Assembly: GCF_033153115.1 (NCBI RefSeq)
Contig: NW_026889762.1
Coordinates: 5,852,496-5,916,495 of the forward strand
Direction: 5' to 3'
DNA from: Saccostrea echinata
Taxonomy: Eukaryota
DNA length: 64,000 bases
Part shown: piece by piece, positions 3,821 to 59,149 of the stretch
How the letters are laid out: the number at the start of each line of letters is the position of its first letter
How positions within the stretch are numbered: the first letter of the stretch is position 1
Position numbers and translations under genes: made by a program
The notes under the pieces: model-generated
What the model was told of the DNA's origin: nothing
Databases searched by the model: none
What the model saw: the letters and a program-made list of their open reading frames with translations, nothing else

Positions 3821-4648
3821 TTCACCATGGTAAAACTGTATGAAATACAAGAAAATACCTAGTACTGATAATTATGCTTCGTCACTTAGAAGTTCAAGAT
3901 AAAGAAAGGCTGTATATAATGATTCAGGGATGCAACAAAAAGTATTTAGCTGTCCCAAATTTTGTTCCCTATCCACAGATTTAAAATACGTATTAAGTAG
4001 AAGATTGCACATACATCTCAAAGTCATCACTTCGACGTACTTAAGGTTTTGTTCTTTTAAAATGAACAGTTAATCTGTAATCTTACTCAGACTTCATGAT
4101 AAAATTTTCAACTCTTACTACCTTTTTTACTAATTTTTTTTTTTTGAAATCATAAACAGTGTATTAAGTCTTATTTAACGTTTTTATCTTCCTCTGTAGA
4201 AGAAATCGACCAATATCAATTAAAATTGTCATATTATAGCATCGCTTTATATAGTTGATTCAGTTTGAACAAATGAAGAACCAGACCCTCTTTTGAAGCA
4301 GCAAGGGTCTTATTATATTAATTTGTTTTTTCTTTTGTTTTAAATTTAGACTGTGTAACAATGAGTGGAAAAGGAGGTGGTGGGGGAAATCTAGTCCTAG
4401 GCTCAGTTCTTTTTTTTTTTTTTTTTTTTTTTCATTTTAAGAAATGCACAATTTTATTGATCACAAATTTTCATTAAAAAAAGTTTTTATGGCATCAACA
4501 AGCATTTCATAAAAGAAAAATTTAAAAAGAACCTGCAGTACTCTTTTGTGTGGTAACTAAGGATAACTAGATCTCATAAGTTCGTTTATTAAAAAAAATT
4601 TCTCAGTTCGGAACAAATATACACATTATTCTGATTATTTTGATCTAG

Positions 4649-4702
4649 AATCTGAAGAAGAGGAAGAACTTGAAGACCAGTGGATGGGTCTTTTTGATGA
4701 CG
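4649..4702 (+). CDS. Exon encoding acidic-Trp motif (E)SEEEEELEDQWMGLFDD, probably from the same gene as the VCA exons.
   Basis: Acceptor ctag at 4645-4648 and donor GTGGGT at 4703. Phase 1 in and phase 1 out, which chains with 1565-1649 and with 4811-4845. Confidence 0.45.
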
Positions 4703-4810
4703 GTGGGTCAAGTACTTATCTATTGCATACTCTGGTCAGCTTTGAATTTTTATAATAATTATTATAATTGAATTTTAATTTACATGTAGTTAATTATTTT
4801 TCCCTTTCAG

Positions 4811-8432: not shown

Positions 8433-9105
8433 GTAATATAAAATATTTTTAAATTGCTTTACATGTAATCAGTCTTGAGTGTTTTGTGCATAATTAATTG
8501 ACCAAGTGTATTGATTAGAATGATGAGAATATTCAGCCAGAGTGTGCTGATAAAGTGAAGAAGAGAGGGGATCTCAGTTGAAATGTCTGTTATTCGTGGA
8601 GGGGGTCTCAATGGGGCTTGTATGGGCCCTTGTTATTAGTTTCTTGGTGAGGGACATCATCAAACAATGAATGCAGATAATTCCCAAATATACTTTAATT
8701 AAAACTGGTAATCCTACTTTAACAGAAAGGTCGGTTGTTTTGGACAATCATGCTTCTAATAAATGGCACTTGATCCCACCTCTGATGTTTCAGAGGTCCG
8801 TGTTTGCTCTGCTCCTGATTTGTATTGTTTAATGGACTTTTGAGCTTGAATACCGTTCGTTATCTCCATATATTATATTTGAAGAAGAATTTGAAAAGTT
8901 GTGACCACTCTTCATGATATCAATGATAACAGAATTTGGTATTTAAAATATAAATGGTAGTGATAAATGAAATCACACCCCATATGTTGAAAGTGTATGT
9001 GCTTTCAAACTACCTTAAGGAACAGACATTCTGTATTTTCTCATAACAGCACAAAAACTCTGTAAAATACTGCAAAATTGCAATTCCTTTTAGCATGATT
9101 ACATG

Positions 9106-10837: not shown

Positions 10838-11113
10838 ATTTTTATAATCTTGAATGAATATACATGTACAAAACATCAATGTGTAAGCTCATGCAGCCTC
10901 GATCTGCACAAACATATATGACTTTAGGCATCATGTATCTTTATGGTGTTATAACTTTCATTTACAAAACATTAAAAAAATATCCATGATCAGTTTGATG
11001 CAGTTTACCTCACACAAAAGCTACATATGTACACAAATTGCATGCATTATGAAACTTGATTTAAAGTGGATATTTAAAGTAAATGAGTTACAACTGAATC
11101 CCCTCAGATTATA
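10838..11113. repeat. Copy 1 of an approximately 276-bp local duplication (copy 2 at 11923-12198).
   Basis: tttttataatcttgaatgaatatacatgtacaaaacatcaatgtgtaagctcatgcagcctcgatctgcac...ccctcagattata is repeated nearly verbatim. Confidence 0.8.
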
Positions 11114-11741
11114 ATCATGATCCCCGGGGGTAGGGTGGGGCCATAATGGGCGATCAAAGTTTTATATACAGTAGGAATAAATAGGAATAAGTCTTTAAAA
11201 ATCTTCTTCTCAAGAACAGCAAAGCCATGATTAGTCATATTTAAATAGAAGCAGCCTCAGGTAGTGTAGATTCAAGTTTGTTCAAATCATGACCCCTGTG
11301 GGTAGGATGGCCCCACAATGGGGGATCAAAGTTTTACATAGGAATACATAGGAAAAATCAGCAACAGCCATTTTGTGTCATATTAATTCAAAAGCATCCT
11401 CAGGAAGTGTAGATTCAAATAAGTTCAAATCATCACTCACCCACCCGCCAACCACTTTTATAGTTAAACTTTTCAAGACTGAACTGATTTCTGCCTTTTC
11501 CTAGCCAAAGTGCCCAGGTGAGCGATGTGGCCCCTGGGCGTCTTGTTGCCTGACGCCACGTGCGTCAGGCAGTATAAGGATTAATTTTTCCAAGATCCGA
11601 AACTAAGCGATCATTCTTAATGAACTAGATTTTCTGGAAGCTGATTTACACTGGATTTTGTTACCTGCCTTTAAACAAATACAGTTTGCAGAAGAAAGAA
11701 TCATATTACTGATGCAAAATAATAATCTGTTTAATTTCTTC

Positions 11742-13489: not shown

Positions 13490-14147
13490 CTTGTAACTTT
13501 TTTAAATACAAAACGTCAAATTTGAGTACTATTTGGTTTAGAGTCATCAAACTTTGTCAGTTGATGTATCTTGGGTCCTCAGAGTAGGTCGACTGAAAAG
13601 TAGGTCACCGTGACCTACTTTTCAATTTATATTACTATTAAATATTTCGGGTCCTAAATGGCTTAGAATCATCAAACTTTGTCAGTTGATGCATCTTGGG
13701 TCTTTGGAGTAAGTCGACTGAAAAGTAGGTCACCGTGACCTACTTTTGAAAATTTATGGCTTTTATTAAATATTTCAGGTACTAATTGGCTTAGAATCAT
13801 CAAACTTTGTCAGTTGATGCATCTTGGGTCCTTGGAGTATGTCGACTTAAATGTAGGTCACTCTGACCTACTTTTGGAATTTTATGGCTATAGTTCAATA
13901 TTTTTCGGGTATTAATTTGCTTAAAGTCATCAATATTTGTTGGTTGATGCATCTTGGATGCTTGGAGTACGTCGACTGAAAGGTAGATCACTATGACCTG
14001 ATATAAATATTTTTTCAGGTACTAATTAGCTCAGAATTATCAAACTTTGTCAGTTGATGCATCTTGGGTCCTCAAAGTATGTCGACTTAAATGTAAGTCA
14101 CTCTGACCTACTTTTGAAATTTATGGCTTTATTAGCTCACCTGAGCT

Positions 14148-14150
<3 letters not shown>
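13490..14150. repeat. Satellite-like tandem array, about 125-bp unit, 5 copies. Each unit contains the palindrome AGGTCAnnnTGACCT.
   Basis: caaactttgtcagttgatgcatcttgggtc recurs at about 13549, 13675, 13801, 13923 and 14041. Perfect inverted repeats taggtcaccgtgacctac at about 13601 and 13727. Diverged copies at 17165-17400. Confidence 0.85.
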
Positions 14151-14190
<40 letters not shown>

Positions 14191-14217
14191 TGTCGTCGTT
14201 GTCTTTGTTGTCGTCGT

Positions 14218-14248
<31 letters not shown>

Positions 14249-14439
14249 AAGAACCACTGGGTCAATTTCAACCAGACTTGCTGCAAAGTATCCTTGGGTA
14301 AAGGGGATTCAATTAGTTTGTTCAAATGAAGGGCTATGCATTCTTCCAAGGGGAGATAATTATGAATTTGTGAAAAATTAATGGCATCATTTAAAAATCT
14401 TCTCAAGAACCACTGTGCTTGAAAATATGAAACTCACAT

Positions 14440-15460
14440 GGAATCATTGTGAGGTAGTGCAGATTCAAGTTTGTTCAAATCATGACCCCTGGGGGTAGGG
14501 TGGGGCCACAATGGGCGATCAAAATTTTACATAGGAATACATGGGAAAAAATCTTCTTCTCTAGAACAGCAAAGCCAAGATTGGTTATATCTATATGCAA
14601 GCATCCTCAGGTAGTGTAGATTCAAATTTGTTCAAATCATGACCCCCTGGGGTAGGGTGGGGCCACAATGGGCGATCAAAGTTTTACATAGCAACACATA
14701 GGAAAAATCTTTAAAAATCTTCTTCTCAAGAACAGCTAAGCCATGATTAGTCATATTTAAATGGAAGCATCCTCAGGTAGTGTAGATTCAAGTTTGTTCA
14801 AATCATGATCCCCGGGGGTAGGGTTGGGCCATAATGGACAATCAAAGTTTTATATACAGTAGGAATAAATAGGAATAAGTCTTTAAAAATCTTCTTCCCA
14901 AGAACAGCAAAGCCATGACGGGTCTTATCTATATCATGCAAGCATCCTCAGGTAGTGTAGATTCAAGTTTGTTCAAATCATGACCCCCGAAGGTATGGTG
15001 GGGCCACAGTGGGTGATCAAAGTTTTACATAGGAATACATAGGAAAAATCTTTAAAAATCTTCTTCTCAAGAACAGCAAAGCCATGATTAGTCATATTTA
15101 AATGGAAGCATCCTCAGGTAGTGTAGATTCAAGTTTGTTCAAATCATGATCCCCGGGGGTAGGGTGGGGCCATAATGGGCGATCAAAGTTTTATATACAG
15201 TAGGAATAAATAGGAATAAGTCTTTAAAAATCTTCTTCTCAAGAACAGCAAAGCCATGATTAGTCATATTTAAATAGAAGCAGCCTCAGGTAGTGTAGAT
15301 TCAAGTTTGTTCAAATCATGACCCCTGTGGGTAGGATGGCCCCACAATGGGGGATCAAAGTTTTACATAGGAATACATAGGAAAAATCAGCAACAGCCAT
15401 TTTGTGTCATATTAATTCAAAAGCATCCTCAGGAAGTGTAGATTCAAATAAGTTCAAATC
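14440..15460. repeat. Satellite-like tandem array, about 168-bp unit, 6 copies (ggtagtgtagattcaagtttgttcaaatcatgacccc..gggtagggtggggccacaatgggcgatcaaagttttacataggaatacatagg).
   Basis: Unit recurs at about 14447, 14617, 14777, 14950, 15118 and 15286. Related units at 11113-11450 and diverged units at 30130-30640. Confidence 0.85.
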
Positions 15461-19143: not shown

Positions 19144-19443
19144 GAAAAAACACCACCACCACCACCACCCACTAAGAATATAATACCTCGGTTTCCACCA
19201 TCTGTAAGTGTATCTAGTATACCGCCTCAATCTCTGAGATCTCCACCACCACAATCAATGATAAGAAGAGGCAGAGGGAGAGACAGAGGAGGTGGGGGAG
19301 GGGGAGGAGACCGACAGACTCTATTACAGTCCATAACTAGAGGACAAACTCTAAAGAAAATTCCACCTCGGCCTGAAAAGCCCTCTGTAGAAGATCACCG
19401 GGATATTGTGTTTCAAGCCCTTGAACATAGAGCCAGTATTTCA
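19144..19443 (+). CDS. Exon encoding polyproline, WH2 and C (connector) motifs of a WASP-family VCA module: EKTPPPPPPTKNIIPRFPP..SPPPQSMIRRGRGRDRGGGGGGGDRQTLLQSITRGQTLKKIPPRPEKPSVEDHRDIVFQALEHRASIS.
   Basis: Acceptor tttcag at 19138-19143 and donor GTAATA at 19444. 300 nt, phase 0 in and out. LLQSITRGQTLKKI fits the WH2 consensus LLxxIxxGxxLKK(V/I). IVFQALEHRASIS fits the C-helix pattern (compare WASP LVGALMHVMQKRSRAI and WAVE VATILSRRIAVEYS). Confidence 0.75.
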
Positions 19444-23158: not shown

Positions 23159-23266
23159 GAGGAGGAAGAAGGAGATTGGGATTACTCTAAAGAGGAAGCG
23201 CTTGAAGAGGAAGGGAAAAAGAAAGCATTTTATTCTGCAGTGTATGGTTCAAAAGAAAGTGAGAAG
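23159..23266 (+). CDS. Exon encoding the acidic (A) motif of the VCA module: EEEEGDWDYSKEEALEEEGKKKAFYSAVYGSKESEK.
   Basis: Acceptor ttttacag at 23151-23158 and donor GTACTT at 23267. Phase 0 in and out. The acidic run with a single Trp (EEEEGDWDY) directly follows the C helix of exon 19144-19443. If unspliced, the frame stops 10 codons later. Confidence 0.7.
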
Positions 23267-26208: not shown

Positions 26209-26583
26209 GTAAGTTTTAAAACAATTTATATTCTTTCACTTTATATCGATCAGGCACCAGTGTAACATACTCAATTTTGAAAGAAAACTCCTATCAAAAA
26301 TTGAAATTTTAAATTTTTCTGAATTTTATGATACCATGTCCAATTATTCATTTATAATGAGTTAAATATCTATTCTAGAAATATTCAAACTAGTCAAACA
26401 CGTGTAATATGTCTAAGTTTTTGTTGTTAGATTCTTTGAGCTATTGAAATTCTTGCTTATTTTTCTATTTTTTTTTTTAAATTAAAAGCTCTTTGAAGTC
26501 CTTACATTCTTTGTTAACAAGAAAATAAAACCATTTATCAAATATACTTTATTTTAATTATTATAATTTCAACATTCTAATAG

Positions 26584-26903
26584 CTATGGGGAGGAAATTG
26601 AACCAAGAGAGAGAAAGCAAACAACAGGAAATGGAAGATAAAATATTGCTAGATTCTCCGCAAGAAAATTTGCGTCAGAGTTTTTTAAAACGATCTCCTG
26701 AGAGAAAACAACAAGAAATGGGAGAGGAAAAATTAGAGAAAACCATGAAAAAAATAAAAACAAAATCCTTGAATCGTAAACAAAAAAAGCTGACAAAAGA
26801 GGATATTTCTCCAGCAAAGGAAGCTGAGCCACTACTGATAGAATCTCCACAAGAAATACAACGTCTGAGTTTTATAGAAAGGTCTCCCGAGAGAAAGGAA
26901 ACG
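26584..26903 (+). CDS. Exon encoding a charged region with two copies of a ~30-aa internal repeat: LLDSPQENLRQSFLKRSPERKQQE and LLIESPQEIQRLSFIERSPERKET.
   Basis: Acceptor ctaatag at 26577-26583 and donor GTGAGA at 26904. ORF 26586..26927. Phase 1 in and phase 0 out. Confidence 0.6.
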
Positions 26904-27307
26904 GTGAGATATCTTAGCCAGAATTAATCTTGAAATGGATTGTTATCTATAGATCATTGTGGTGTTAAAGTTGTCATTTTTTTTACAAACATGTCATGAT
27001 GTGTGAAGTGCTTCACCGTCCCTTTCAGTTCACATAAGGTTTTTTTTTTTTTTTAATCCTTTGGATTTAGTACACAAGCGAAGAGGTTATTTAAGTCACC
27101 TTTTGTTGAGAGTAGTCATCAATTAACTAACATTTGCTTAAGATAATTAATAGATGGAATGTGAATATTACATTTAAATGTATACTGTAGAAACACAGAT
27201 ATTTGTGGGGATAAAATTTCGTTCTTTAGTCTTCCAAGAAGGTTTCATGGGCATTAAATTTCATTGTTTCGAGAGTAACCCTATAGTAACCCTATTCTAT
27301 ACATATA

Positions 27308-29506
27308 CGAGGGTTGTTCGGAAAGTTCGTGGACTATGCCAATCTTCGTTATACTATCTTCAAGTAATTTAAAATGAGCATATGTAAAAATATTTGTTTT
27401 GTTTAAGTGTGAAGTTTCATTCCATGTGATTAAATAGAATTCATGCTGTTTAATTTTAAAATCAACACGTTTTGTAACCACCGAGCAAACTCAACAACAC
27501 TGTACGTCAAAAACATACCGACATGAGGTTCTCAAAAATACTATCCCCATACATTTCGCACAGTATTGCCCAATACGAGTGCACTCATTAAAAACGTTTC
27601 TCTATCACTTTAAGGTAGTATGGGATACCTCCACGTTATGACGTATTTCCGTTTGAAGTATTGTTTTGATTTGCATGAGTGCTTATTATCGGGTCAAAAT
27701 TTGTAGATACACCGTTGAAAAGAACACTCTGAAGCCTATTTCAATGCAAGTTCTCACAAGTCGGCATTTTAAGTAAAAACAGACAAAAAAATCGCAAGTA
27801 TATAAATTTACTTATAATTGTACAACGGACATTTAAAAGAGCAAACCCCTGTAAAAGGTAGTTTCAACATTGCTGCTTTTGAACACTTTTAAGCAAAAGC
27901 TGTATTTCAATTGTTTGAGTAACTGTACAGCACGTTGTGTGCGGTGAGGCATGGATAAGTGCAATTACTTCACATTGTGCTGAATTATCACCAATCAATT
28001 ATCACGTTAACCAGGGCTGGACTTTTTTGTTATTTAATTCAAGAAGTAACTGTTTGGTCACAAATCAGCTAGCTGTTGTATATAGTCCCAAAACGTTCAG
28101 ATGAATGCAATTGCTCTGAACAAGACAGGTCCTGGAAAGCGATTGTCCGTGCATTGTTTTCAAAACCGCTCAAAGTTGAAAACTACAAAGTGCGATTTTT
28201 TATGGTTGGGAAAAAATGCTCATCATTTCTAAAATAGCACCCAGGTTTTTTCAACCCTTGGAAAATAAAGAAGGATAACTCTTCCGCTCGGATCTTTTAA
28301 TTCAAAAAATTTTAAATGCATTTTATATTTTCCATTTATATATATATTTTCAATTTGTTTATTTCACTTTGCTAACATATTAAGATACATTCTAATTGTA
28401 GACTTTCATGAAATGTTATCCGTCTGTTTTCAAGAAATAAAGTTTTCCCAGTTTTTTACGCTTATTTTTTGGTGAAAATTAAAAAAATACTAAGACATAT
28501 TTCTTGTCATTTTTGTTTTTATAAACACTTTATATTAGCAAACGCCTGCCTATAATATTAAGCTTATGAAAAAAGAGTTATGCAAGAAAAAAATCGTTTT
28601 TGTATTTCTCATTAAAATAATAAAAAAATTATTAAAATTACACTTTAATATACTGAAAGGTGGGGGTATTTCAAATCCTTCTAATTTGGGTACATAAATA
28701 TGTAGGAGAAGTTTCCTTTGGTATCCCATACCACCTTAAATCTATTTTGCTAACAATTGTTCCAGTAGCATCATTTTGTTTGTCAATGTTATATTTTTTT
28801 CACTGCATGAGTGTGCTTTCACAAGATCAGCATCTGTGAAGCGCTAAACTCTTAGCATGACGTAAATAACTTTTCAATGTTTTTGATAAAATTTTTACAG
28901 ATAATCCATTTTCTCACAGATATTCTTCATCTAAGCAGAGTATTCTACTATTCAAATACCGCTTGTACCATGTACACACACATGCATGGCTAGCTTTTGA
29001 CGTATATCCTACTTCCTCCGGCATTTTCAGAGTTTTATTGTGAAGTTTTCCAGAGTACAACACAAAATTGAATGGTTAACTACTGCTCCGTGACGTTCTA
29101 CGACGTCATCTTTTTTGCCTTTTTCAATGAGAACTGCCTATCTTCTGAAACCAATTTCTTTTCAACGAAGTAAAATATTAAGTCATAATTTGGAATCAGA
29201 AACGATGAAAAAATTCTTAATTTGAACATGTAGAATTTTTCCGTTTTTTGTGTCATTTTACAGAAGATATGACTTCAGACATTATTTAGTGTCTTGATTG
29301 TAAATTACGAAATTTTGACCTGCTCCGTGATCCGATTTTCACATTTTTTAAGTCTTAATAAGTTTGAAATAAACCATGATATTTTAAAAATTTTAATACA
29401 CATCATTTGAATTTACTATTGAAATATTTCTTACAAATTTGGATATGATATGACGTTAAGTAAAAAAGTTATGACGGTAGTCCACGAACTTTCCGAACAA
29501 CCCTCG
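27308..29506. mobile_element. TA-flanked DNA transposon with ~30-bp terminal inverted repeats (cgagggttgttcggaaagttcgtggactat), about 2.2 kb, with no intact transposase ORF (non-autonomous). Tc1/mariner-superfamily-like.
   Basis: Left terminus at 27308-27337 and its reverse complement at 29477-29506. TA dinucleotides flank both ends (27306-27307 and 29507-29508). Termini are related to the element at 39469-40433. Confidence 0.75.
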
Positions 29507-30129
29507 TAGTCATATAAAAATTTCGTGTGGGGTTTAATTTCGTTGAAAATTGTTTACAACAAAATAAATGAAATTAAATCCCACACGAATATTTCTGCTT
29601 TTACAGTATTAAATGTTTTAAAGATTAAGAGTATATGACATCACACTTTTCATTCATGAAATATGAAGGTAACGAACAGTTAACAAGCTAAAAAAAAATC
29701 CATTAAAACAATACAAACTTGTAGCAGAGCAAACATGGGAATTTTATTAAATATCAGAGGTAGGATAAGGTGTCGTAGAGAAGCATCCCTTGCACCCCCA
29801 TGCATATCTGTTATGAAGTTCAAACGCTACTTATGATGTGTGACTGGTTCGAAACTTTGTGGAAATATTTTAGTTCAACTGACCTGAGAGCTCTAGTGAG
29901 CTTTTCTGATCATCCATTGTTCAGATTCCATCTGTTTGTGTGTATATCCATCTTTACACCCATTTATGTTCTAAAGAACCACTTGACAGATTAGCAAAGT
30001 TTGCACAAAGTATTTTTCGTAAAGGAGATTCAAAGTTTTCAAATAAAGGACCTATCCCCCTTAAAAGAGGAGATAATCAAGAAGACAAAAATAGGGTAGG
30101 GTCATTAAAATTTTCTCTAGAACCGCTTG

Positions 30130-30640
30130 GCCAAAAGATCAACTTAATCTAAAGGCATCCTGAGGTAAAGATTTGTTTAAACATAGCTCTTGAGGGTAGA
30201 GTGGGGCCACAAAAATGGATCAAAATTTTCAATTAAATTTGTAGGAAAACCTTTAAAATTCTTTTCACGAACCACTTCACAAGAAAAGATAAAACATTTG
30301 ACACCAGGGGTTATTTAGATTCTACGTTGTTCGGATCATGGTCCTATGGTACCATGAATCAGAGTTTTATATCGAAATATATAGGGAAAAATTATTTAGA
30401 TTCTGATTTGTTAAAGTTTGGCCCAGTGGAGGGGGGGGGGGGGGGCAGAAGTGGCTCATATTTTACATTGAAATGAATTGGAAAAAGCTTTTAAACTCTG
30501 AAAAGTTGTAACTTATGTGAAAGCCTTCTTTTAACGTTGATTGTATTTCATTGATCAAATCATGCTTCTGGGGATATGGTGTAGGCACTATAGGGAAATT
30601 TTTACATTGGACTATTTAAAAAATATCAAATTCTCTCACC
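30130..30640. repeat. Diverged tandem units related to the ~168-bp satellite.
   Basis: ...gggtagagtggggccacaaaaatggatcaaaattttcaat... and similar motifs recur three times. Confidence 0.55.
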
Positions 30641-33017
30641 TGGGTATATTTTACTTAATGCAAGTATACCGAAAATAAAATTCTCCGAAACTGCAAGACC
30701 ATGTTAGTTATATTGAAGAATCCCCATGTTGTGTGGAATCAGAAACTCCTCATAATTAGGGTGTGCTTAAAATATAAGAACATTACCTCTCATGGAAATA
30801 AAAAAAAATCTCTTAATTTTCTAAAGAACTGCTTAAGTGACACGCATCCAGGTGCGGTTTGTGGCCCACATTGACGTTCTGTCGTGGACTATCTCACTAT
30901 GTCTTGAATCAAACATGACAAAAAAAAAACTCAAAAATGACTATCTAATACAAGCCTTGTAGATATCCATGTTGGAAGTATAATCTCGAAAATGCGGTGG
31001 TTACACAAATTATAGAATCTGTCACAATCTCTTAATGAAGTATGCAAAACATAAATAAGATAAGGAAAGGTATAATGTTCAATAATTATTTTTCAACGTA
31101 TGGCACCATACTTGCTTTATTTTTGCATTTTGTTTCAACCAGTGCAAATGTAGTTGAGGAACCACTTGATACATTAAAAAAATAGTGATATCAATATTCT
31201 TATGTTTAATAAATTAATATCGATATGAAGTCATATTTTGATGGCATCGTGCAGTCTGCATTAGCAAGTAAGGATTACTTCAAAGTCTTTTCAGATATGG
31301 AACAACTAAAATATAGTACATAGAAAAAATTGTAAATCAAAAAGAAAAATCTTCATCTTTTCTATACTACATTGTTTTCATTCGTGTGGGGTAGTAGAAA
31401 CATTTCAGAGTAGAGGGAGAAAGAAAGAAAGAACATTGACATTATTTCACTTAATAACAGTCACGCCATATTATTCAAGATACGAGTGTCCTAATGGTTA
31501 TTTCATATCTTGTTTACAAATTAAATTTGCATTAGTTACAAAAGATAATGTTGTTGGTTCTGCATGGATTAATGACTGGAAGCGTCACTTATAAAATAAT
31601 GTAAAGAGTGAAATTTTAACTGACTTGTGTTATTGTGTCTTCTAGTACAGTACTATTTCGAAAATTTTAAATGGTTCAAAATAATTGTTATTATACCCCC
31701 GCAAACGAAGTTGGGGGGGGGGGGGGTATTGGAATCAGCATGTCTGTCTGTCCGTCTGTCTGTAGACGTGATTTTGTCCGGATCATTTCTCGGAGACTAT
31801 TACATGGATTTGTCTGAAAATTTGTACAGTCATTATGCACCATATGAAGGTGTGCACCTGGTATTTTCGTCTTGATTGGATAATATTTCTGCATTTTACA
31901 GGTGTTTTTTCTCATTTTTATTGACTTAGTCATTTTGAGTTCCTGTAGGTTTGAGGCATAGAATCTAGAACTGCCAGTTGGTACATCTGTATAAAAACGT
32001 GAATTGCAGCTTAAAACTACTCTTTAAAACTCAAAAAATCACCAAGTATTCAAAAAAGTTATTTGGTAGATAATCCATACAAATCTAAGAGTCATAAAGT
32101 ACCCTTATTAAAAAAAAGTTGCATCAAAATTAAACAGTTCTTTTTTTTCATTATATAAAACTTTGTAAGAAATTTAGAAAATCTTTGTTTTCAACAGAAT
32201 GACATATACATGCATTTTCTATTGTGTGACAGATTCACAGCACATAACACAGCAGATAGTGTAAATCCATTTGTTACCTGGGAGTAATGAGTGGACATGC
32301 ATCCAGTTTAAGATTAATTAATGGGCAGAGTGGGAAGCTGTTAGAGGTGTTATCTATATCTCCTGGGAATTTGGCAGAAGAATTAAAGATCTCTGTTCTC
32401 TAACTCTCTTAATATTAATTTATATTAGTCTAGCTGTCAAATTAAAATACATAGTTACTGGATGACCAGTCTTTTATTTTTAAGATGAATTTGGGATAAA
32501 GTTTTTTATTTTTATTTTATTTCATTTTCAACAAACAAATTGCAGAGTGTACAGTGTAATTTCTAACAAAAATGACAAATGCAATTTATTTTTTCAATCT
32601 AATAAAAAAACAGTATAATTGAACAACAATAATTATAAATATTATTAATTAATTAATATAATTAATAAACAATGTAACAATAATTATTATTATAGATGTG
32701 TTATTTGGCTGCACCTTATTTCATCATTCATTAAAAAAAATATAAAGATCAATGAAATTTTCACTCTTAATTGTTTAAACAAATTGTGAACACCTCTTAG
32801 AGCCATAAAATATGTTTAGTGACTTGGCACCTTTTCTGAAAAATCCAGCGGGGGTTATTTGTCCATATTGAACAGTTCTAGTTTTTACTGTTTTAAGTTT
32901 AACTACAAATTAAGTTAAATCATCACTTGTGAATGAAAATTGATAATAATACTTTAACGTTATCAAGTATACAACTTTGTATAATCATTTTACTTTTAAA
33001 ATATATATTATTTTTAG

Positions 33018-33137
33018 GAGTCTCATTCACTATTGCTGTTGGACGTCGCACCACTTTCTATAGGGGTAGAGGACGCCGAGGGGAATTTCTGTGTAGTTAT
33101 CGCAAGAAACACCACGATTCCTTGTCGGAAAGAACAG
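33018..33137 (+). CDS. Exon 1 of 8 seen of an Hsp70-family substrate-binding-domain gene: [40 protein letters not shown].
   Basis: Compare canonical Hsp70 [36 protein letters not shown]. Acceptor tttttag at 33011-33017, with an in-frame stop immediately upstream, so it must be spliced to an upstream exon. Weak donor GTTCAA at 33138. Phase 0. Confidence 0.75.
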
Positions 33138-33984: not shown

Positions 33985-34089
33985 AATTTCACGTGTATTG
34001 ATAACAAACAGAGCAGAGTAGATGTCAGAGTTTATGAAGGATGCATGAAGGAGGCCAAGCGGAACCATTTTCTGGGACAGCTCCAGATT
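33985..34089 (+). CDS. Hsp70 SBD exon 2: NFTCIDNKQSRVDVRVYEGCMKEAKRNHFLGQLQI.
   Basis: Compare Hsp70 [35 protein letters not shown]. Acceptor tttttag at 33978-33984 and donor GTAAGT at 34090. Phase 0 in and out. Confidence 0.75.
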
Positions 34090-34364: not shown

Positions 34365-34482
34365 AAAAATATTTTGCCTTCCCATCCTGGAAGCCCATGG
34401 ATAAAAGTGACCATTGATATTGACGCCAACGGAATAACAACAGTTAAAGTAACAGACATCAGATCTCTGCGCTCTGAGTCCT
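34365..34482 (+). CDS. Hsp70 SBD exon 3: KNILPSHPGSPWIKVTIDIDANGITTVKVTDIRSLRSES.
   Basis: Compare Hsp70 [29 protein letters not shown]. Acceptor ctag at 34361-34364 and donor GTAAGC at 34483. Phase 1 out. Confidence 0.75.
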
Positions 34483-34650
34483 GTAAGCAATAATACACCT
34501 ACACTGCACTCTGAGTCCTGTAAGCAATAATACACATACACTGCACTCTGAGTCCTGTAAGCAATAATACACCTACACTGCGCTTTGAGTCCTGTAAGCA
34601 ATAATAACCTACACTGCGCTCTGAGTCCTGTAAGCAATAAAAAACATACT
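34483..34650. repeat. Tandem repeat, about 38-bp unit, 5 copies. Each copy reproduces the last ~17 nt of exon 34365-34482 plus its GTAAGC donor (ctacactgcactctgagtcctgtaagcaataatacac).
   Basis: Direct reading. It creates four extra potential donor sites downstream of the exon. ORF 34353..34637 (minus) is an artefact. Confidence 0.85.
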
Positions 34651-35026: not shown

Positions 35027-35121
35027 TTAAGATAGGAAATGACAAAGGCAGACTGAGTCAAGAACAAATTGAGCACATGGTAAAGGAAGCTGAAAAAGAG
35101 AGAATGAAATCTGCTACAGAG
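35027..35121 (+). CDS. Hsp70 SBD exon 4: (F)KIGNDKGRLSQEQIEHMVKEAEKERMKSATE.
   Basis: Compare Hsp70 [30 protein letters not shown]. Acceptor atacag at 35021-35026 and donor GTAAGT at 35122. Phase 1 in, matching the previous exon, and phase 0 out. Confidence 0.75.
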
Positions 35122-36342: not shown

Positions 36343-36397
36343 CTTATGCCAAGGACTTCAAAACTACCTGCGTTGCCAGTGGGATATGAAGAAAAAG
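36343..36397 (+). CDS. Candidate exon 5 of the same gene: LMPRTSKLPALPVGYEEK.
   Basis: Acceptor gtctag at 36337-36342 and donor GTACTT at 36398. Phase 0 in and phase 1 out, consistent with its neighbours. No recognisable homology. Confidence 0.45.
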
Positions 36398-38531: not shown

Positions 38532-38638
38532 CTTCTGATGTAAACTCTTATGGTATTGGATCTTCTGTCAGCAATGTTCTTAAGGAGACCCCAAGACTGA
38601 ATATATCCTCACTACAAGCGATGTTTAATATTCAAGAG
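38532..38638 (+). CDS. Candidate exon 6: (A)SDVNSYGIGSSVSNVLKETPRLNISSLQAMFNIQE.
   Basis: Acceptor ttggtag at 38525-38531 and donor GTAATC at 38639. Phase 1 in and phase 0 out. Confidence 0.45.
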
Positions 38639-39133
38639 GTAATCTTTTACTCATAATATGTGTAGGTACAACATGATTACTTAATGCAACATTCTTTTTG
38701 TTCATAATGGTACATTTCAGCTCCGCCACTTTGCAATGGATTTTTGGGGGTTTAGAAGCAATTTCTAATCTAAGAAGGGACTGAATCAATATTAAAACAG
38801 GAATATTTTTAAAACTAATATAGCCATGTGAGAAGTATTCTGAAGTACCCTTTGACCATTAGCTTGACTCTCAATATAAAATACTGTCAAGAATTTCTTC
38901 AATATATCAGGTTGTACATGACTGTATATAACTTCTTGACATATGTATGTAAGGTACATGCATATTTGATGAAAATAGTTCAAACTGTTGTAAATTTTAT
39001 GACTTTGAATCTTCCTGTGAACTTATTTACATAAATATAGACTACATGAACATGTACATACATTATGAATATTTGACTGAGTGTTTTGCATATGATAAAT
39101 GTGCTTAGTTTGAAATACTTCTGTCACCAACAG

Positions 39134-39233
39134 AACAATTTATGGAAACTTGGAGCGAATTTGGAGGAGACTTTTGGAATTGACATCACAAAATGTATGG
39201 ACATCCTCCAAGGAGCAGGATTAAATTCACTTG
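39134..39233 (+). CDS. Candidate exon 7: NNLWKLGANLEETFGIDITKCMDILQGAGLNSL(G).
   Basis: Acceptor caacag at 39128-39133 and donor GTATGT at 39234. Phase 0 in and phase 1 out. Lies within ORF 39086..39361. Confidence 0.45.
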
Positions 39234-39468
39234 GTATGTACACAAAGAACTGGACATTATGCTTGGTTAAAACACATATAAAAGAACATAGGAATATGAA
39301 GATGAGGAGGCCACCACAAATATATATAGGGATTCATCTAAATTTTTTTCTGACATGCTAAGAAAAATTTCTCTCAACATAAATTCTTTCTTTTATATGA
39401 TACAGGTGTATTTTGTTTCAAATTTCTTTGTATAAAATACTCTTCTCTTTTTAATTAATTTGAAAATA

Positions 39469-40433
39469 CGAGGGGTGATCAAAAAGTTCGCGAACTAATT
39501 GAATAACTTCCTTGGAAGAAATAAAATGAGATTTCAATGTTCATTATTTTTTAAGGTAGTCCTCTCCAATTATAATGTACATCTGCCATTGTTCTGCCCA
39601 TTCGCGAATCACGTGATCCAGGCGGTCACGTGACATGCTTCGTAGCGGTTTGTTCACAAAAGATAAGAGATTTTTCCTTGTCTTATATTTCTTACCATGC
39701 AAATTATTTTTTAAAACAAAACAGACCATCTGTCAGAAATGGCCAAATCTCGGCAATAGGATGGCTGGATAAGGATATCCCTTCCCAGAATTAGAATGGT
39801 GACCATCAAATCCCGAGTCCTCTGTCTCGGGAGCGTCGTTTATCCAATATGGAAAAAGTATGGGTGCCTTCTTTTTATCATATCTGATATTTTTAAAGTT
39901 TAAAACAAACGATATTTTAGGGATTTGATAATCATATTATTGTTCAGATATTCAACTATTTTTCTAATTGTAACTTGGCGATCTTTCCAAACAAATTGCT
40001 CAACTAAGGACGCATCTTTTTACCGGCTTGCTTTCGCTGGGCAACAGAATGGACATCATTTTTAACCATCTACCTGCCTTCACTAAAACAATCAATCCAA
40101 TTAATAATTGAACTTCTGGTAAGTCTTTTGTCTTCTTAAACCGTGTACAAATTATCATATTCTACTGCAAAGGAATTTCCGAGATATATGTTAAACTTTA
40201 CAGCCGTTCGTTGCTCGAGTACAACTGAGTGAACCATTTTTTGTCACAAGTCACCTAGATATTGACGTCATTTTCACATTATGACGTCACAAACACGAAA
40301 CAAAACATTATATAACATCTGCTATTTATAGAACATGTATATGACTATATGTGTGCCAAATTTCTTACTGATCTGAATTGTGGTTTAATTTGTAAATATA
40401 GAGATAGTTCACGAACTTTTTGATCACCCCTCA
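39469..40433. mobile_element. TA-flanked TIR element, about 0.96 kb (termini cgaggggtgatcaaaaagttcgcgaact), non-autonomous. Related to the element at 27308-29506. Lies in the intron between candidate exons 7 and 8.
   Basis: Left terminus at 39469-39496 and its reverse complement at 40406-40433 with one terminal mismatch. Flanked by TA at 39467-39468 and 40434-40435. Confidence 0.75.
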
Positions 40434-40497
40434 TATATGTGTACTTGTATTCATTTTCCATAAAGCTAACTACGAATATTTTCTCTTTCTGTATCAG

Positions 40498-40841
40498 GTA
40501 AAAAGGTTGGAGATGATGTCCTAGAATTGATATCTTCAGCCCTGGCCCTGCTCCTTATCCTTAAAATAATTGTTCCAGAGTTATTTCCTTTAGACTTTTC
40601 TAATCAGCTCAGTCTTTTGTCTGCATTCATGAAAGCAGAAAATAAATTAAAGAAAATGAGCATTGATGGTGGATTTTTAGAGGAAAGGCTAAGAGTTTCG
40701 GTGGAGACATACATAGCCAAGAGACAGAAATATGACTGGGTGTGTGATATGTTGGAATTAGGTCATACGTGGGAGGAGGCGGCCAGTAGAATGCTTGGAT
40801 ACACTTCATCTCTGGAAACTAAAGCCCCTCTTTATATATAA
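40498..40841 (+). CDS. Candidate terminal exon 8: (G)KKVGDDVLELISSALALLLILKIIVPELFPLDFSNQLSLLSAFMKAENKLKKMSIDGGFLEERLRVSVETYIAKRQKYDWVCDMLELGHTWEEAASRMLGYTSSLETKAPLYI, then stop.
   Basis: ORF 40527..40841 extends upstream to the acceptor tatcag at 40492-40497. Phase 1 in, matching exon 39134-39233. Stop TAA at 40839-40841. No recognisable homology. Confidence 0.45.
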
Positions 40842-51759: not shown

Positions 51760-52169
51760 TAGTGCCTGACGAATCCCTTTAAAAATCTGTCCTGACTGAG
51801 CGAGGCGGGGACCTTGATTTCAGCGGAGGTGCGACACTGTATGTTTCCTCGCGATACGAAGCTTTAAGTCGCGAACAAAAGATTATTGATATATTACAAG
51901 ATAACGGTCAGAGGAGCAACTATTTAGGCCTGTATGAACAATACCCGACAATTACGCGATGTCAAATCAAACTAAAATGACAATTGACGCTCAAATCTCG
52001 CGAGAGGTTGTGTATAATGTTTGTGTGATCTTACCGGTTGGTGTCTGCTTTATTAAAATATGACGGGGAAATTTTAGACTCCATTAGAAAATATGGATGA
52101 AAAGTGTCGCGTCGTTTATTCAGAAAATAGAGGGTTATTTTCGCTGTTCAGATCAGTGTAACGTTTTTA
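51760..52169 (+). promoter_or_regulatory. Putative promoter and 5'UTR region of the HUNK-like gene (CpG-containing, Sp1-like aggcgggg at about 51813, TATA-like tataatg at about 52013).
   Basis: Local rise in CpG and GC content relative to the AT-rich surroundings, immediately upstream of the first coding exon. No transcription start site can be placed from sequence. Confidence 0.3.
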
Positions 52170-52382
52170 ATGGAGTCGGAGAAAACGGACGAGGATAATG
52201 GCACGAAGGAAGCAAGCGGAGCGGAAGAAGATGCTGATGCGAAGACTTCCGGCGAACATCATTCCACACCGGAAACCACAGAGAAAAAAAAGAAGGTCGG
52301 AAATTACATCCTTGGAAAGACTCTAGGAGAAGGCTCTTTTGCTAAAGTACGCCAAGGCATCCATTTAATCGCCCATGAAAAG
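52170..52382 (+). CDS. HUNK: HUNK-like Ser/Thr kinase, exon 1 (start codon, acidic N-terminus, glycine loop): ...KKVGNYILGKTLGEGSFAKVRQGIHLIAHEK.
   Basis: ORF 52170..52394. Compare human HUNK KRVGNYLIGSRKLGEGSFAKVREGLHVLTGEK. Donor GTATAT at 52383. Confidence 0.85.
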
Positions 52383-55300
52383 GTATATATGTAAAATTGA
52401 ATTCAATTATCCTTTTAACAACAAAAATATTTTTTTATACTATAGGGTTGAAATTTTCAAATATTTTCAGATCCGAAAGTCAAAGTTTCTCGTTTTATCC
52501 CCTCTCCCACTTCATAGAACAAAACTTAAAGGACTGTTTTTGGACCTGGTTCTAAAAGTACACTGTAAGTCTTCAAGACAAGGTGAAAAAACAACGTTAA
52601 TGGGTGATTCATTGTAATGAATTTCCAAATGATGACTTAATGTCCCCCATATGTTTACAACTAAAGCCAATATTTGAATTGTGTATGTAAAAAAAAATGC
52701 GCTTGATCAGAATTAAAAGACCTACATTAGAATTTAAAAGTTGCTAACAAATCCACACCTTTAAAATTAGCTTTAGTTTCCCCCCAAATTTCTGACAAAA
52801 TGCATGGACAGTTTTGAAACCAGAAAAAGTGCCACAATAATGGATGCAGTTTTAAATCAAATAGGTGCAACAGAATACCCCAGCTGCCAATACTGGTACA
52901 TTTCTAGAGTATTTAATTTATCGATATAGAGATTTACATATACTATAACACTCTGAATCTCTTATCTATCATGGTCAAGACACAAGCGTGTTTTTCGTAA
53001 TATAATCAGCTGTTATATTCATTTTTACTCATGTACACGACACAATTTTTTTCTTTACAGTCGTACAGTATATGCACAAGATTGAATCTCAACATTCACG
53101 TTTAATAACAATCATTAAATCCTTATACTGCCATAAAGAATGACAATTTAGTCTATATAATGCTTGGACATTTATTAAGTTAACTGCATGTAAATGACAC
53201 TTGAAAGAGTCAATTCTTTGCTCATTTCTTTCTCTTTGTAGAGTTTTCTGTCGGTTAAGGTATTTCATTTAAGATTCACGCATTAAAATCCGTCCATTAA
53301 ATAAACAGTTAAACAGCTGATTTCACGCAATGATAAATCACAAATTGTTACGTAAAGATGTTTCATATAAATTTTATCAAGGTTATAGAACCGCGATATT
53401 ATCAACTACTGATGAATATCGATGTATAAATGTTTTCATTCAACGGCCATCCTGCACGATGTCGAGGGCAAGGCTAAATCCAAGTGCATTATAGGAATAT
53501 TAGTTTAAAGTTCTAGATTATGTTTTTAAATTACCTTTATCAAGTAAGAAAGCTATAGTCTTGAGTGGACACTTGTTAGAAGATTCCAGTGGCACAAGTT
53601 TATCAGTCGTTTTATCAGTATTGGTGATTTAAGTTATGAGCAAATTGATCTTGCATTTTTCAATGTGTATAGCCAAAGTTTGTTGTGACAATTACGAGTT
53701 TTAAAAAGAATCTTATCCTCGTGCTGTTTTGATCCTCGAGGATTAAAATCATGTCCACTTTTAAAATGTCTGACACGGAGAGCCGGTATAAATCAATACA
53801 AGTGAAGAACGCTAAACAGCATCTCACTGTGCGTGCACTTTTCATTATTTTTAATTTTATAAACAAGTTTGACATTGGCCCTTTCCATAACTTGGTTGTC
53901 GTTCATAAAATGTTAACCCCGTATTTTGAATACTCTAGAAGTTTGAATGAAAAAAAAAAATCTTTTTTTTTGTTAGACAGGAAAATTGATTTCAGATACA
54001 CATTTTAAATATGTTCTTATACTAAACTTTATCGTCATTTACTTGTTCATTTAACAGCACATACGTGAAAGGCAATCATTTTAAAGCTAAATTATAAATT
54101 TCAAAAGATTCTTTGGAAAATATTTGATAAGCGAAGGTTTAAAGAATTTTTTTCTTCTCCTTAGGCTTCTTGTATACCAAGGTTATCATTTTTGGTTAGG
54201 AAGGTTTTGTTTTTTTTTATACATCTTGCATTGAGACTTGCACTAAATCTTAACCATGCTTCTAAATGAAATTCAAGCAAATAGAAAAGGAAAAGGACGC
54301 TTTCTTTGTCCAGGTGATGGAGCTAGTTTAGATATAACTCGAGAGTCGAGATACGTAAAAGAAATTCAGCAGTTTTCTTGCATTTCTGATTTGGGAAATA
54401 TTGCTGAATCAAGTCTCCGAAAACCACGATTTGGAGGTTTAAATCTTTTAGGGGGGTCATAGTAGTCATGCGTCCAGGTCCCTGATGGCGTCTTCATGAT
54501 AATGAAATGTAAAACAATTTGATGTATACAGCAAAGGCCATGATTAAAAAGATAGTGTTTAATACCACACAAAAGTTTAAATTGCATAATTTTTTATCTA
54601 TCTAATTAATACCAACCGTAAAGCAATAGCGGGACCTATATTTTCAATTCAACGCGTTTATGATGAACAGTGATGGATATTTTTCAGAACATATGTACAA
54701 CAACAAATCTACTTTTAATTGCTTTATTTACATAGGGTTATAATGCTAGTTCAATTATTTCCGATTTTGTTTTTATATTTAAGTACAATTAATAAAAAAA
54801 TAATTCTGATTCATCAAGAATCATGAACAAAAGTAGGGCAAATTTGGTTATTCGGAAGTACTCTTGATATTATATGAGTAAAAAAAAAAGTAAAGCGTTT
54901 TTTTCTAGTTTGGATGTACAAAGCCACAAAAAGACTTGGAATAAAAATTTTCAACCAATGAACTATTCTTCCCTGTTTAGAATGAAGTTGGGGGTTTTCA
55001 AATCTTGAATCAATTATAATATTTTCTTTTCATACTCCAGCTTAGGTTTATTTGCCCATTTAACCCACAAATGAACAGGACCATTTATTAAGTCAGTATT
55101 AAAATGTTGACACAGAAGAACGTTTTCTGATTTTTGAGATAAAGAGATTTAAGTTAAATACATGAACATCGAGACAGATTGACATTTTAAATGGAGAAAA
55201 TTCTTTTCACAGAATAGATAAAGAGAGTCTTGTCAGACATGTACATTTTTTCAAAAATGCAGCCCCCTCGCTTTCTCATACAATCTCAGTATTCTCTCCC

Positions 55301-55597
55301 TCCTTCTCTCTCTCTCAATATATCAATACTCTCTCTCTCTCTCTTACTCTTTCTATATACATGTTGAAGTAATCTCTCTCTCTCATTTTCTCTCTCTCTC
55401 TCTCTCTGAACAAAGTATGAAAATAAATTTGTCTGCCTCCTTGCTTAAAAATGGTTTGCCTAATCCTTACCGGGATAATCTATACATGTATCATTCCCTA
55501 TACTATACCACATACTAATAAGTAAATATGCTCTATAGATAAGTTAACAGGAACTGTCCTGTAGACAAACCTGTCTCATATTATAATTGTTTTACAG

Positions 55598-55800
55598 GTT
55601 GCTGTAAAAGTTGTCTCCAAGAAGGCGTTATTGGTGCGAGACTTTGTTCGTAAGAACGTTAGACGTGAGGCCATTGTGTTACAGAAACTCTCACATCCAA
55701 ACATTATCAGAATGTACGAAGTCATGGAAACGGAGAATTCTTATTATCTAGTCCTGGAGTACGCCGATTGTGGGGAATTCATCAAATATTTGTCTATAAA
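55598..55800 (+). CDS. HUNK: HUNK exon 2: VAVKVVSKKALLVRDFVRKNVRREAIVLQKLSHPNIIRMYEVMETENSYYLVLEYADCGEFIKYLSI(K).
   Basis: Compare human VAIKVIDKKRAKKDTYVTKNLRREGQIQQMIRHPNITQLLDILETENSYYLVMELCPGG. Acceptor tttacag and donor GTTAGT. Phase 0 in and phase 2 out. Confidence 0.9.
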
Positions 55801-56331
55801 GTTAGTATAGAAAATGCGTTAATATTTATTTCTTGATCTCACTCGAAAGAAACTGATATTTCAAACTTACATATCATTCCTTCTTAGAACATGGTGAAAA
55901 AGTAAATTTATGCAAATTAGAAAGGTAGAAAGTGGAATATAAATTACTAATAATTTCACATCTCCTAGAAAAGTACTTCACTGTTCACCCAAAAGCACTC
56001 CATATTTAAACGAAACTTGTATTCATAAGAATGCACGTATATTCCATGTCATCTGCAAGGTGTTTCTTACACTTTATTTTATATATTTTCCTAACTTCAT
56101 ACAGCTGGAGCTTTGCTCATTTTTTATTTTTATGTTTTAATTGACTCCCCTTTTCTTCGCGATTTTCTACCAATTTTGTCAGTATAATTCATTAAGTTTA
56201 AAAAGAATTATGCCCTAAACATTTTCTTACAATTGCAATCATGAATGCTTTGTTCAAGTAATGTAATATCTAATATAAGAATATGCAGATTAATTGTTTC
56301 TCGTTTAATGAAGAATTGATCAATATTTCAG

Positions 56332-56421
56332 AAAATGTCTACCTGAAAATGAATGCAAAAAATACGCCCGTCAGATAGTTTCTGCCGTGGATCATATGCA
56401 TGTGTCTAACATTGTTCACAG
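56332..56421 (+). CDS. HUNK: HUNK exon 3: KCLPENECKKYARQIVSAVDHMHVSNIVH(R).
   Basis: Compare human LEESEARRYIRQLISAVEHLHRAGVVHR. Acceptor ttcag and donor GTAAAA. Confidence 0.85.
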
Positions 56422-58223: not shown

Positions 58224-58279
58224 GGATTTGAAGTTAGAAAATTTTCTCCTTGACGCAAATCTGGATATTAAGATAATAG
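58224..58279 (+). CDS. HUNK: HUNK exon 4: (R)DLKLENFLLDANLDIKII, the catalytic loop.
   Basis: Compare human DLKIENLLLDEDNNIKLI. Acceptor aatacag and donor GTATGT. Confidence 0.85.
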
Positions 58280-58431
58280 GTATGTTTTGATAGTTAACTC
58301 CTGATTGCATGTTAAGCATCAATGTATGTTGTATTTTCTAAATGAATTTTGAATGTTGTCAAACTTCTTTGGTAACGTTAAGTTCACTGTGGAAGTTCGC
58401 ATGGTAACTTAATTTCTACTTAAGAAATGAA

Positions 58432-58580
58432 TTTAATTTTTGAAGATTCATGAGGACATGCACTACGACGCTTCACGCCGGCATATTTCATGAAGCGCGT
58501 TAGCGCTTCATGATAAATATGCCAGCGTGAAGCGTTGTAGTTCATGTACCTCATGAATCTTCAAAAATTAAATTCATTTC
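58432..58580. repeat. Foldback palindrome (~70-bp arms) in a HUNK intron.
   Basis: aatttaatttttgaagattcatgaggacatgcactacgacgcttcacgccggcatatttcatgaagcgc..gcgcttcatgataaatatgccagcgtgaagcgttgtagttcatgtacctcatgaatcttcaaaaattaaatt. Confidence 0.85.
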
Positions 58581-59022
58581 TTATATACATTATTTTTCTG
58601 ATGAATTACCACAAATTTCACCATTCAACTGTCATTTTTAAAGCAAAACAGTTTGCACTATAGTTTTGACGTCAAGTACGGCATTATGACGTAACAATTG
58701 AGATATTTATGCTCATCCATGGTAGTTCATGAGAAAATGAACAGCATTCTAATTTGCAAAGAATATTAAGAAAAAATATTTGGAAATGTAAATATATATT
58801 CATAAATGCTATATTTCAGTTTTTGATCAATAAGCAAAGCAATTGCCACGAATATAAAACAATTTTATTAAAAAGTTAGTTAAGTAGTATTGAAAGTGAA
58901 TATAGGCATCTGAATTAACATCAAGATGCATGTATAATCTTGGCAATTAACTACATGTATCTATTGAATAAATAAGATAAAAGTTGTAAGTACTTAGTTT
59001 AATTTCTTCATCAATATTTCAG

Positions 59023-59149
59023 ACTTTGGATTGAGTAATGTGTTTTACGGTGACACCTCCCTGTCCACTCAATGCGGTTCCCCCGCCTACGCCGCCCCGG
59101 AAATCCTCAATAACCAGAAATACGGACCCGCTGTAGACATATGGAGCGT
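59023..59149 (+). CDS. HUNK: HUNK exon 5: [43 protein letters not shown].
   Basis: Compare human [46 protein letters not shown]. Acceptor tttcag and donor GTAAGA. Confidence 0.9.

Follow-up and report, generated by a model that had tools for sequence, protein, structure and literature searches.

In human PARP4 (PDB 9bw6, 9bw7, 11jf), residues 1562–1724 make up the MINT/MVP-interaction domain (MVP-ID), which docks the protein inside the vault, and the residues in contact with MVP are S1614, K1618 and R1689 (PMC12280208). This domain comes after a long disordered region, and the same order was found in the predicted product of a gene lying in a 64,000-nt stretch of the oyster Saccostrea echinata (contig NW_026889762.1, positions 5,852,496–5,916,495; hereafter the window, in which position 1 is the first letter). 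In the oyster protein, however, a substrate-binding domain (SBD) of Hsp70, which vertebrate PARP4 does not have, directly precedes the MINT-like domain, whereas no exons for the other PARP4 domains, BRCT, PARP, VIT and vWA, lie in the window, and R1689 is replaced by Met. Compared with Hsp70/Hsc70 (HSPA8), the oyster SBD keeps the LLLLDV linker and the RNTTIP, DIDANG and NDKGRLS motifs, but the nucleotide-binding domain (NBD), the complete lid and the EEVD tail are missing, only the first lid helix being kept; lacking the NBD, it could not undergo ATP-driven substrate cycling in cis. Upstream of the SBD, exons 19144–19443 and 23159–23266 encode, in V-C-A order, a WH2-like LLxxIxxGxxLKKI, then an amphipathic helix and a Trp-containing acidic segment, which resemble the VCA module of the WASP/WAVE family. 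That module, however, stands at the extreme C-terminus of WASP/WAVE proteins, whereas the oyster one is internal and followed by >700 residues; in addition, the oyster protein has no N-terminal WH1, SHD or WAHD-type domain, and its Pinctada homologue has no clear WH2.

A close likeness in overall architecture is to KAK3096544.1 of Pinctada imbricata (P0227; UniProt A0AA88YGQ2, "PARP4 MVP-ID C-terminal domain-containing protein"), with further relatives in a rotifer and in Aplysia, the Aplysia member lacking the SBD. The Pinctada protein shares with the oyster protein, in matching order, an intrinsically disordered region rich in proline and FG (P/FG), the VSWR(K) sequence, an acidic-Trp motif, a lysine-rich linker, the Hsp70 SBD and the MINT-like domain, and is ~38% identical to P0001, a Crassostrea-like orthologue. 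It differs in having no intron directly before LLLDV and in the position of the acidic-Trp and ribosomal P-stalk-like motifs, which follow VSWR in Pinctada but precede it in the oyster. K1PUC2 of Magallana gigas (P0226, "Poly [ADP-ribose] polymerase 4") contains an orthologous SBD, 92% identical to that of the mRNA-derived P0001, but here the SBD is attached to BRCT-PARP-VIT-vWA and an N-terminal fragment of actin and the MINT part is absent; this model may merge neighbouring genes. The combination of a disordered region, an Hsp70 SBD and a vault MINT domain appears to be undescribed in the literature searched, and the databases hold automatic names only.

The initial annotation had raised the possibility that a VCA-containing gene in this window is fused to Hsp70-SBD exons across a 6.1-kb gap (nt 26904–33017). 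We read this gap as probably a single, transposon-enlarged intron of one S. echinata gene and not as intergenic DNA, judging from the comparisons given below; the gene would lie on the + strand and extend from at least ~4.6–7.8 kb to 40.8 kb. The proposal held in so far as the two exons are joined in orthologous loci, but the term fusion did not, since these loci indicate one gene with an ancestral structure that is broken in the S. echinata annotation, not a new fusion of two genes. The features concerned are as follows (/ marks a splice site here and below).

19144–19443, + strand: WH2-like cassette exon of 300 nt, phase 0/0, placed by its splice sites and by homology to S. cucullata P0223
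23159–23266, + strand: acidic exon with Trp, "A"-like motif EEEEGDWDYSKEEALEEEG..., present in XP_061177490.1
25281–26208, + strand: P/FG-rich exon, product ending ...AKQVSWR, phase-1 donor TGG AGA A/GTAAGT
26209–26583, + strand: intron of 375 nt between the P/FG exon and the next, spliced out in P0121, P0122–P0125 and P0123
26584–26903, + strand: lysine/glutamate-rich (K/E) linker exon, acceptor ...ttctaatag/CT, ATG at 26586
26904–33017, + strand: intron of 6114 nt between the K/E exon and SBD exon 1, GT-AG
27306–29508, no strand assigned: non-autonomous element with perfect 31-nt terminal inverted repeats (TIRs) at 27306–27336 and 29478–29508
29656–29793, no strand assigned: dispersed repeat resembling a short interspersed element (SINE), with further copies at ~8767–8871 and 57388–57524
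33018–33137, + strand: SBD exon 1, Hsp70 interdomain linker LLLLDV and first SBD-beta strands
33985–34089, + strand: SBD exon 2
34365–34482, + strand: SBD exon 3, DIDANG motif, phase-1 donor
35027–35121, + strand: SBD exon 4, NDKGRLS motif and start of lid helix A
36343–36397, + strand: linker exon LMPRTSKLPALPVGYEEK
38532–38638, + strand: exon 6, start of the C-terminal domain
39134–39233, + strand: exon 7, domain like PARP4 MINT/MVP-ID, NLWKLG...GLNSLG
40498–40841, + strand: last exon, rest of the MINT/MVP-ID-like domain, stop TAA at 40839–40841

The splice sites on the two sides of the gap were as the initial annotation had described them. The first two bases of the K/E exon finish the codon opened by the phase-1 donor at 26208, and its 3′-end is in phase 0 at a good donor, GAA ACG/GTGAGA, of which G/GTGAGA is retained at three loci of S. 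cucullata. SBD exon 1 begins in phase 0 at the acceptor tattatttttag/GAG and contains no ATG, and the in-frame codon directly before it is TAG, from the acceptor itself; thus, it cannot be a first coding exon. SBD exon 1 and the exons that follow it were placed with two proteins as guides, P0002 of S. cucullata and P0001, which is derived from a transcript. Together with the K/E exon, these eight exons form an unbroken open reading frame (ORF) of 453 aa starting from ATG 26586, in which all nine exons are separated by GT-AG introns; the first AATAAA 3′ of the last exon is at 41306. Against three S. cucullata copies, the ratio of non-synonymous to synonymous substitution rates (dN/dS) of the SBD and C-terminal exons was 0.13–0.17 at a dS of about 0.40, while the P/FG and K/E exons gave ~0.7 (P/FG about 0.74) against S. 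cucullata. By these measures, the eight SBD and C-terminal exons are functional coding exons, and since the first of them is unable to initiate translation, a coding exon upstream is needed.

Near the 3′-end of SBD exon 3, a 37-nt minisatellite of 4.7 copies (94% match, nt 34467–34640) begins inside the exon. The repeated unit takes in the last 16 bases of the exon and the GTAAGC donor, so that four additional donors are potentially available, and use of any of them would change the reading frame (37 mod 3 = 1). Only a single copy of this unit was observed in the S. cucullata locus L002.

That the upstream coding exon is the K/E exon was indicated by comparison with orthologous loci, a check that the initial annotation had called for. 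In S. cucullata, the intron between the K/E exon and SBD exon 1 measures 198 nt (locus L003, with the K/E exon ending in ...CCT ATG GCA ATG/GTGAGA), 211 nt (L009, a locus collinear with 4.6 kb to 41 kb of the window) and 1.85 kb (L004, also collinear, with a repeat inside the intron). The phase, the donor G/GTGAGA and the acceptor TAG/GAGT.TCAT are invariant at this junction in the three loci, and the acceptor with its polypyrimidine tract at 33017 is likewise conserved. SBD exon 1 shares 90% amino acid identity with its counterparts in L003, L004 and L009, while the flanking intron is barely alignable; invariant splice sites and conserved exons next to such an intron indicate more than chance. 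Introns of 198 and 211 nt leave no room for another exon. The junction is used in two RefSeq models of S. cucullata, XP_062575596.1 (P0123) and XP_062594583.1 (P0222), in which the K/E exon is spliced to the SBD.

More distant species showed the same connection. In Pinctada KAK3096544.1, KTKKIERRSDSASFLKGSPKSSSQDILLLDVTPLSIGV lies inside one exon, so that the linker motif R.SFLK.SP and LLLDV stand together; VSWRKEQTEVKG and SFLKGSPKSSSQDILLLDV of this protein each fall within a single exon as well. Its SFLKGSP resembles the motif R.SF[LI][KE]RSPERK, which occurs twice in the oyster K/E exon as SFLKRSPERK and SFIERSPERK, and R.SFLK.SP is common to the Pinctada and Crassostrea-like homologues, directly before the SBD. 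Furthermore, the Logan contig L001, from a Crassostrea/Magallana-like oyster, is spliced relative to the genomic contigs L006–L008 and is thus RNA-derived; its ORF encodes ...MVRRSFAGRPQQSTSENGKTTLLLLDV... and then the SBD and MINT domains in one frame. With the join seen in three S. cucullata loci, two RefSeq splices, a single exon of Pinctada and the mRNA contig of a Crassostrea-like oyster, S. echinata very probably splices 26903 to 33018.

The sequence within the gap agrees with this. As had been noted initially, it consists of a 2.2-kb TIR element and AT-rich DNA (GC 26–35%), and introns of such size occur elsewhere in the gene, that between 9739 and 19144 being 9.4 kb. The TIR element has TA on both flanks, as is typical of Tc1/mariner, and no long ORF; several copies of the SINE-like repeat are present in the S. 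cucullata loci. At its two ends (~120 nt on the 5′ side and ~60–110 nt on the 3′ side), the S. echinata intron aligns to the ends of the ~200-nt S. cucullata intron, and between these homologous ends lies ~5.9 kb of extra sequence, in which a clear TIR transposon and a SINE-like repeat were recognised. Judged from these alignments, the intron is one that has grown ~30-fold, partly through transposon insertion. A first exon hidden inside it was considered and rejected, given that the orthologous introns are only ~200 nt and that the recognisable content consists of repeats.

The animal DNA of the window is AT-rich as a whole and contains numerous fragments of transposons. A tandem satellite or transposable-element family with units of ~130–170 nt occupies introns of the gene in both Saccostrea species, at nt 13500–15400 and 11100–11560 of the window, at 10436–11500 of L004 (the K/E-to-SBD intron) and at 18405–20205 of L009 (the intron after SBD exon 1). 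The remnant of a mariner/Tc1-type transposase (…HQDNAPAHRA…DLAPMDF…) was observed at nt 1–900 on the + strand, and many dispersed repeats are common to the regions around 3.5, 20–23.7, 37–38 and 43–44.6 kb.

The Pfam HSP70 profile (PF00012) matched residues 106–250 of the 453-aa product with E=1.3e-33, but the match spans only positions 379–522 of the 599 in the profile; these cover SBD-beta, the linker before it and the first helix of the lid. Many Hsp70 SBDs are about 50% identical to the oyster domain. No exons for an Hsp70 NBD (tblastn with an NBD query, E<=1) or for the lid and C-terminal part (tblastn with the corresponding query) were found in the window. The C-terminal ~150 aa, encoded by exons from 38532 to 40841, matched residues 1581–1716 of human PARP4 in phmmer with E=0.0014, and a profile built from seven family members matched residues 1575–1707 with E=1.6e-13; precomputed matches to Pfam PF26156 exist for P0002, P0222 and P0227, in agreement with this. 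In the HMMER alignment, S1614 and K1618 of PARP4 correspond to the S and K of ...NSLGKK..., and R1689 to Met. On these similarities, the C-terminal domain is homologous to the MINT/MVP-ID of human PARP4, and the gene is a member of an uncharacterised spiralian family in which an ATPase-less Hsp70 SBD is joined to the vault-anchoring domain of PARP4.

The linkage of the SBD to the P/FG exon and the WH2-like and acidic exons is less certain than the splice from the K/E exon, and is derived from gene models of two Saccostrea species and a collinear Pinctada model. The junction VSWR/T-MG between 26208 and 26584 is used by six RefSeq models of two species (P0121, P0122–P0125, P0123), and intron 26209–26583 is alignable to L003, L004 and L009. 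P0122–P0125 also include WH2-C-A, and the WH2/C exon and the acidic-Trp exon are joined to the P/FG exon in the isoforms of S. cucullata LOC134282206. In Pinctada, VSWRKEQTEVKG, which is contiguous in one exon, belongs to a single model running from the proline-rich region to MINT, and long P/FG-rich N-terminal regions are also present in the rotifer and Aplysia relatives. Thus, it is fairly likely that the VCA-like and SBD parts are co-transcribed in at least some isoforms.

As to the nature of the VCA-like part, exon 19144–19443 encodes, as read from its ORF, DRQTLLQSITRGQTLKKI as the WH2-like motif and HRDIVFQALEHRASIS as a C-like helix, besides a proline-rich stretch. By eye, DRQTLLQSITRGQTLKKI fits the WH2 pattern LLxxIxxGxxLKK; an amphipathic stretch and, after it, EEEEGDWDYSKEE come next. 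The score with Pfam WH2 (PF02205), however, was 15.1 bits (E=0.019) against a cut-off of 23.1 bits. At the equivalent place, Pinctada has GFDRPPTLIQPMRFGAGIPPP, which is not a WH2. No N-terminal domain of the type found in nucleation-promoting factors was detected by Pfam in P0121 or P0223, and the P/FG, K/E, SBD and MINT exons all lie C-terminal to the VCA-like motifs. The likeness to nucleation-promoting factors that the initial annotation had pointed to thus stands at the level of motifs only, the WH2 being below the Pfam threshold and the motifs internal instead of C-terminal; we therefore treat the VCA-like stretches as short linear motifs in a disordered region and not as evidence for membership in the WASP family.

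A further motif was observed upstream. At ~4640–4715 (+ strand, within ORF 4567–4752), a probable exon encodes ESEEEEELEDQWMGLFDDGG. Its homologue in S. cucullata is the exon with which the coding sequence of LOC134282206 begins (ESEEEAELEDLCFEFFGDEGP), and ESEEEEELEDQWMGLFDDGG is similar to the C-terminal tail of the ribosomal P-stalk (DDDMGFGLFD). Comparable sequences occur in Pinctada (DDDMAFSLFDD, with a weak Pfam Ribosomal_60s match) and in C. gigas K1PUC2 (DDLGFNLFGDDDD). This exon lies upstream of the annotated start of the S. echinata model XP_061177490.1.

XP_061177490.1 (P0121, LOC133186285), which showed 99% identity to the upstream exons in the protein search (99.7% match for the P/FG exon and 100% for the K/E exon), does not reach the SBD. 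It runs seven codons into the 6.1-kb intron (ETVRYLSQN*, with the stop at 26922–26924). This tail beyond the donor has no conserved counterpart in L003 or L004, and the K/E exon as a terminal exon was therefore rejected as the main form. XP_061177490.1 is probably truncated; its stop is most simply an annotation break at a 6.1-kb, repeat-rich intron, and a minor isoform with intron retention or alternative polyadenylation is possible.

Several observations weigh against a single gene as proposed here. Besides the end of XP_061177490.1 inside the intron, this model skips the WH2 exon, and WH2 and SBD need not share an isoform. No S. echinata protein model over the SBD exons was found in a word-index protein search, which is weak evidence of absence because such a search is lossy: the query of the K/E exon with SBD exons 1 and 2 returned generic Hsp70s only and missed P0121 and P0123. 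In L001, in-frame stops lie 25–70 nt upstream of the ATG, with an A11 run between and another frame open to the end of the contig. At L004, the K/E exon has lost its acceptor and its 5′ part to an insertion of ~830 nt, and RefSeq there begins at a Met inside the exon, giving a separate SBD gene of 358 aa. The ORF of L009 is broken by a 1-nt frameshift in an A9 run (A8 in L003; L009 17389–17410), and each of the four LOC134282206 isoforms in RefSeq is cut short by it within the K/E exon. Downstream of the A9 run, the "correct" frame is open to the conserved donor, which suggests an assembly error or a recent change in L009. A-runs in this lysine-rich coding exon coincide with apparent frameshifts in both places (L009 17389–17410; L001 50–60, the A11 just upstream of the ATG), probably as a result of recent slippage or of errors in sequencing or assembly.

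One alternative supposes two overlapping independent units, namely a VCA-like gene polyadenylated just after 26924 and a separate SBD-MINT gene whose promoter lies within the K/E exon or a short way upstream and whose start is ATG 26586 or an internal Met. The splice from 26903 to 33018 would be kept, but no protein would carry both the WH2/acidic motifs and the SBD. The end of P0121 inside the intron, the start of P0222 at a Met within the K/E exon together with the stop of the L004 upstream model near the acidic exon, and the stops upstream of the L001 ATG would all fit such an arrangement, as would the conservation of ATG 26586 in three loci and an ATTAAA at 27253. However, no AATAAA was present within 700 nt of the 26903 donor, and the read-through tail is the unconserved one described above. 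The six RefSeq models of two species that splice across 26208 and 26584 also speak against a boundary at this place, as do the Pinctada exon that holds VSWRK and the K/E-rich sequence following it, the Pinctada model from the proline-rich region to MINT, and the long P/FG-rich N-terminal region that precedes the SBD in all family members. We regard two units as unlikely.

It is quite unlikely for S. echinata that the whole unit is, or once was, the 3′ half of a spiralian PARP4, here an oyster PARP4 gene whose BRCT-PARP-VIT-vWA exons lie upstream of the window and on the same transcript. Two models suggest it: C. gigas K1PUC2 joins BRCT, PARP, VIT, vWA, an actin fragment and the SBD, and the rotifer P0376 (2098 aa) combines PARP, VIT and vWA with an Hsp70 SBD; in addition, the S. 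cucullata model upstream of L004 has the same actin-fragment match. Nevertheless, no PARP4-type exon was found in the window, including 1–4.6 kb (tblastn with K1PUC2 matched only the SBD exons), the S. cucullata LOC134282206 models and the Pinctada model stand alone without PARP domains, and K1PUC2 is an old model of ab initio style that skips SBD exon 1. Captured foreign fragments were observed elsewhere in the family, within the disordered region or in exons next to it: a SNAP-25-like Qc-SNARE exon at 413–529 of L003, Synaptobrevin and Actin Pfam matches in the L004 upstream model, and an actin N-terminal fragment at residues 1260–1317 of K1PUC2; by tblastn, the window contains no actin-fragment, synaptobrevin or SNAP25-like exons.

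That the SBD and downstream exons are a decaying, exon-shuffled relic severed by transposons and expressing no protein is very improbable, for although no S. echinata protein model over them was found, the intron has expanded from ~200 nt to 6.1 kb and the donor of exon 3 is duplicated by the minisatellite, 8/8 exons are intact with canonical GT-AG sites and no stops or frameshifts, dN/dS is low at a dS of about 0.4, and the acceptor with its polypyrimidine tract at 33017 is conserved.

With one gene spanning the 6.1-kb intron as the preferred reading, the protein would begin with a long, fast-evolving disordered region comprising the P-stalk-like acidic tail, the WH2-like, acidic-Trp and FG/proline-rich stretches and the K/E-rich linker, continue with Hsp70 SBD-beta lacking the ATPase domain and the full lid, and end in the MINT/MVP-ID-like domain, the WH2 and acidic exons presumably being on the same mRNA as the SBD. 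In such a protein, attachment to the inner vault wall would be provided by the MINT-like domain. The SBD, having no NBD, would bind hydrophobic peptides in extended form with no ATP cycle, and the disordered region would show motifs to further partners. We infer from this a vault-anchored adaptor, in which the SBD holds extended peptides and the motifs of the disordered region engage partners.

Downstream of this gene, an unrelated multi-exon Ser/Thr protein kinase gene is located at ~52130–63000 on the + strand (GNYILGKTLGEGSFAKV..., HPNIIRMYEV..., with a long C-terminal exon at 60560–61981).

For S. echinata, correction of the annotation concerns ~350 codons under purifying selection that were not found in any of its protein models. 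We tentatively suggest that bivalves, gastropods and rotifers may possess a vault-targeted protein with an NBD-less Hsp70 SBD directly before a PARP4-type MINT domain, in some lineages with the PARP4 catalytic module on the same polypeptide, and that vaults may thereby capture unfolded or specific client polypeptides. If so, a clamp for binding peptides would be tethered in the vault lumen, accompanied by a long disordered region in which mimic motifs occur (WH2-like, acidic-Trp, ribosomal P-stalk tail, actin and SNARE fragments), and the oyster locus would be one example, disrupted by transposable elements and mis-annotated. A natural SBD-MINT cargo adaptor would offer a testable idea of client capture inside vaults and would be the natural counterpart of the engineered strategy of packaging by MINT fusion (PMC12280208).

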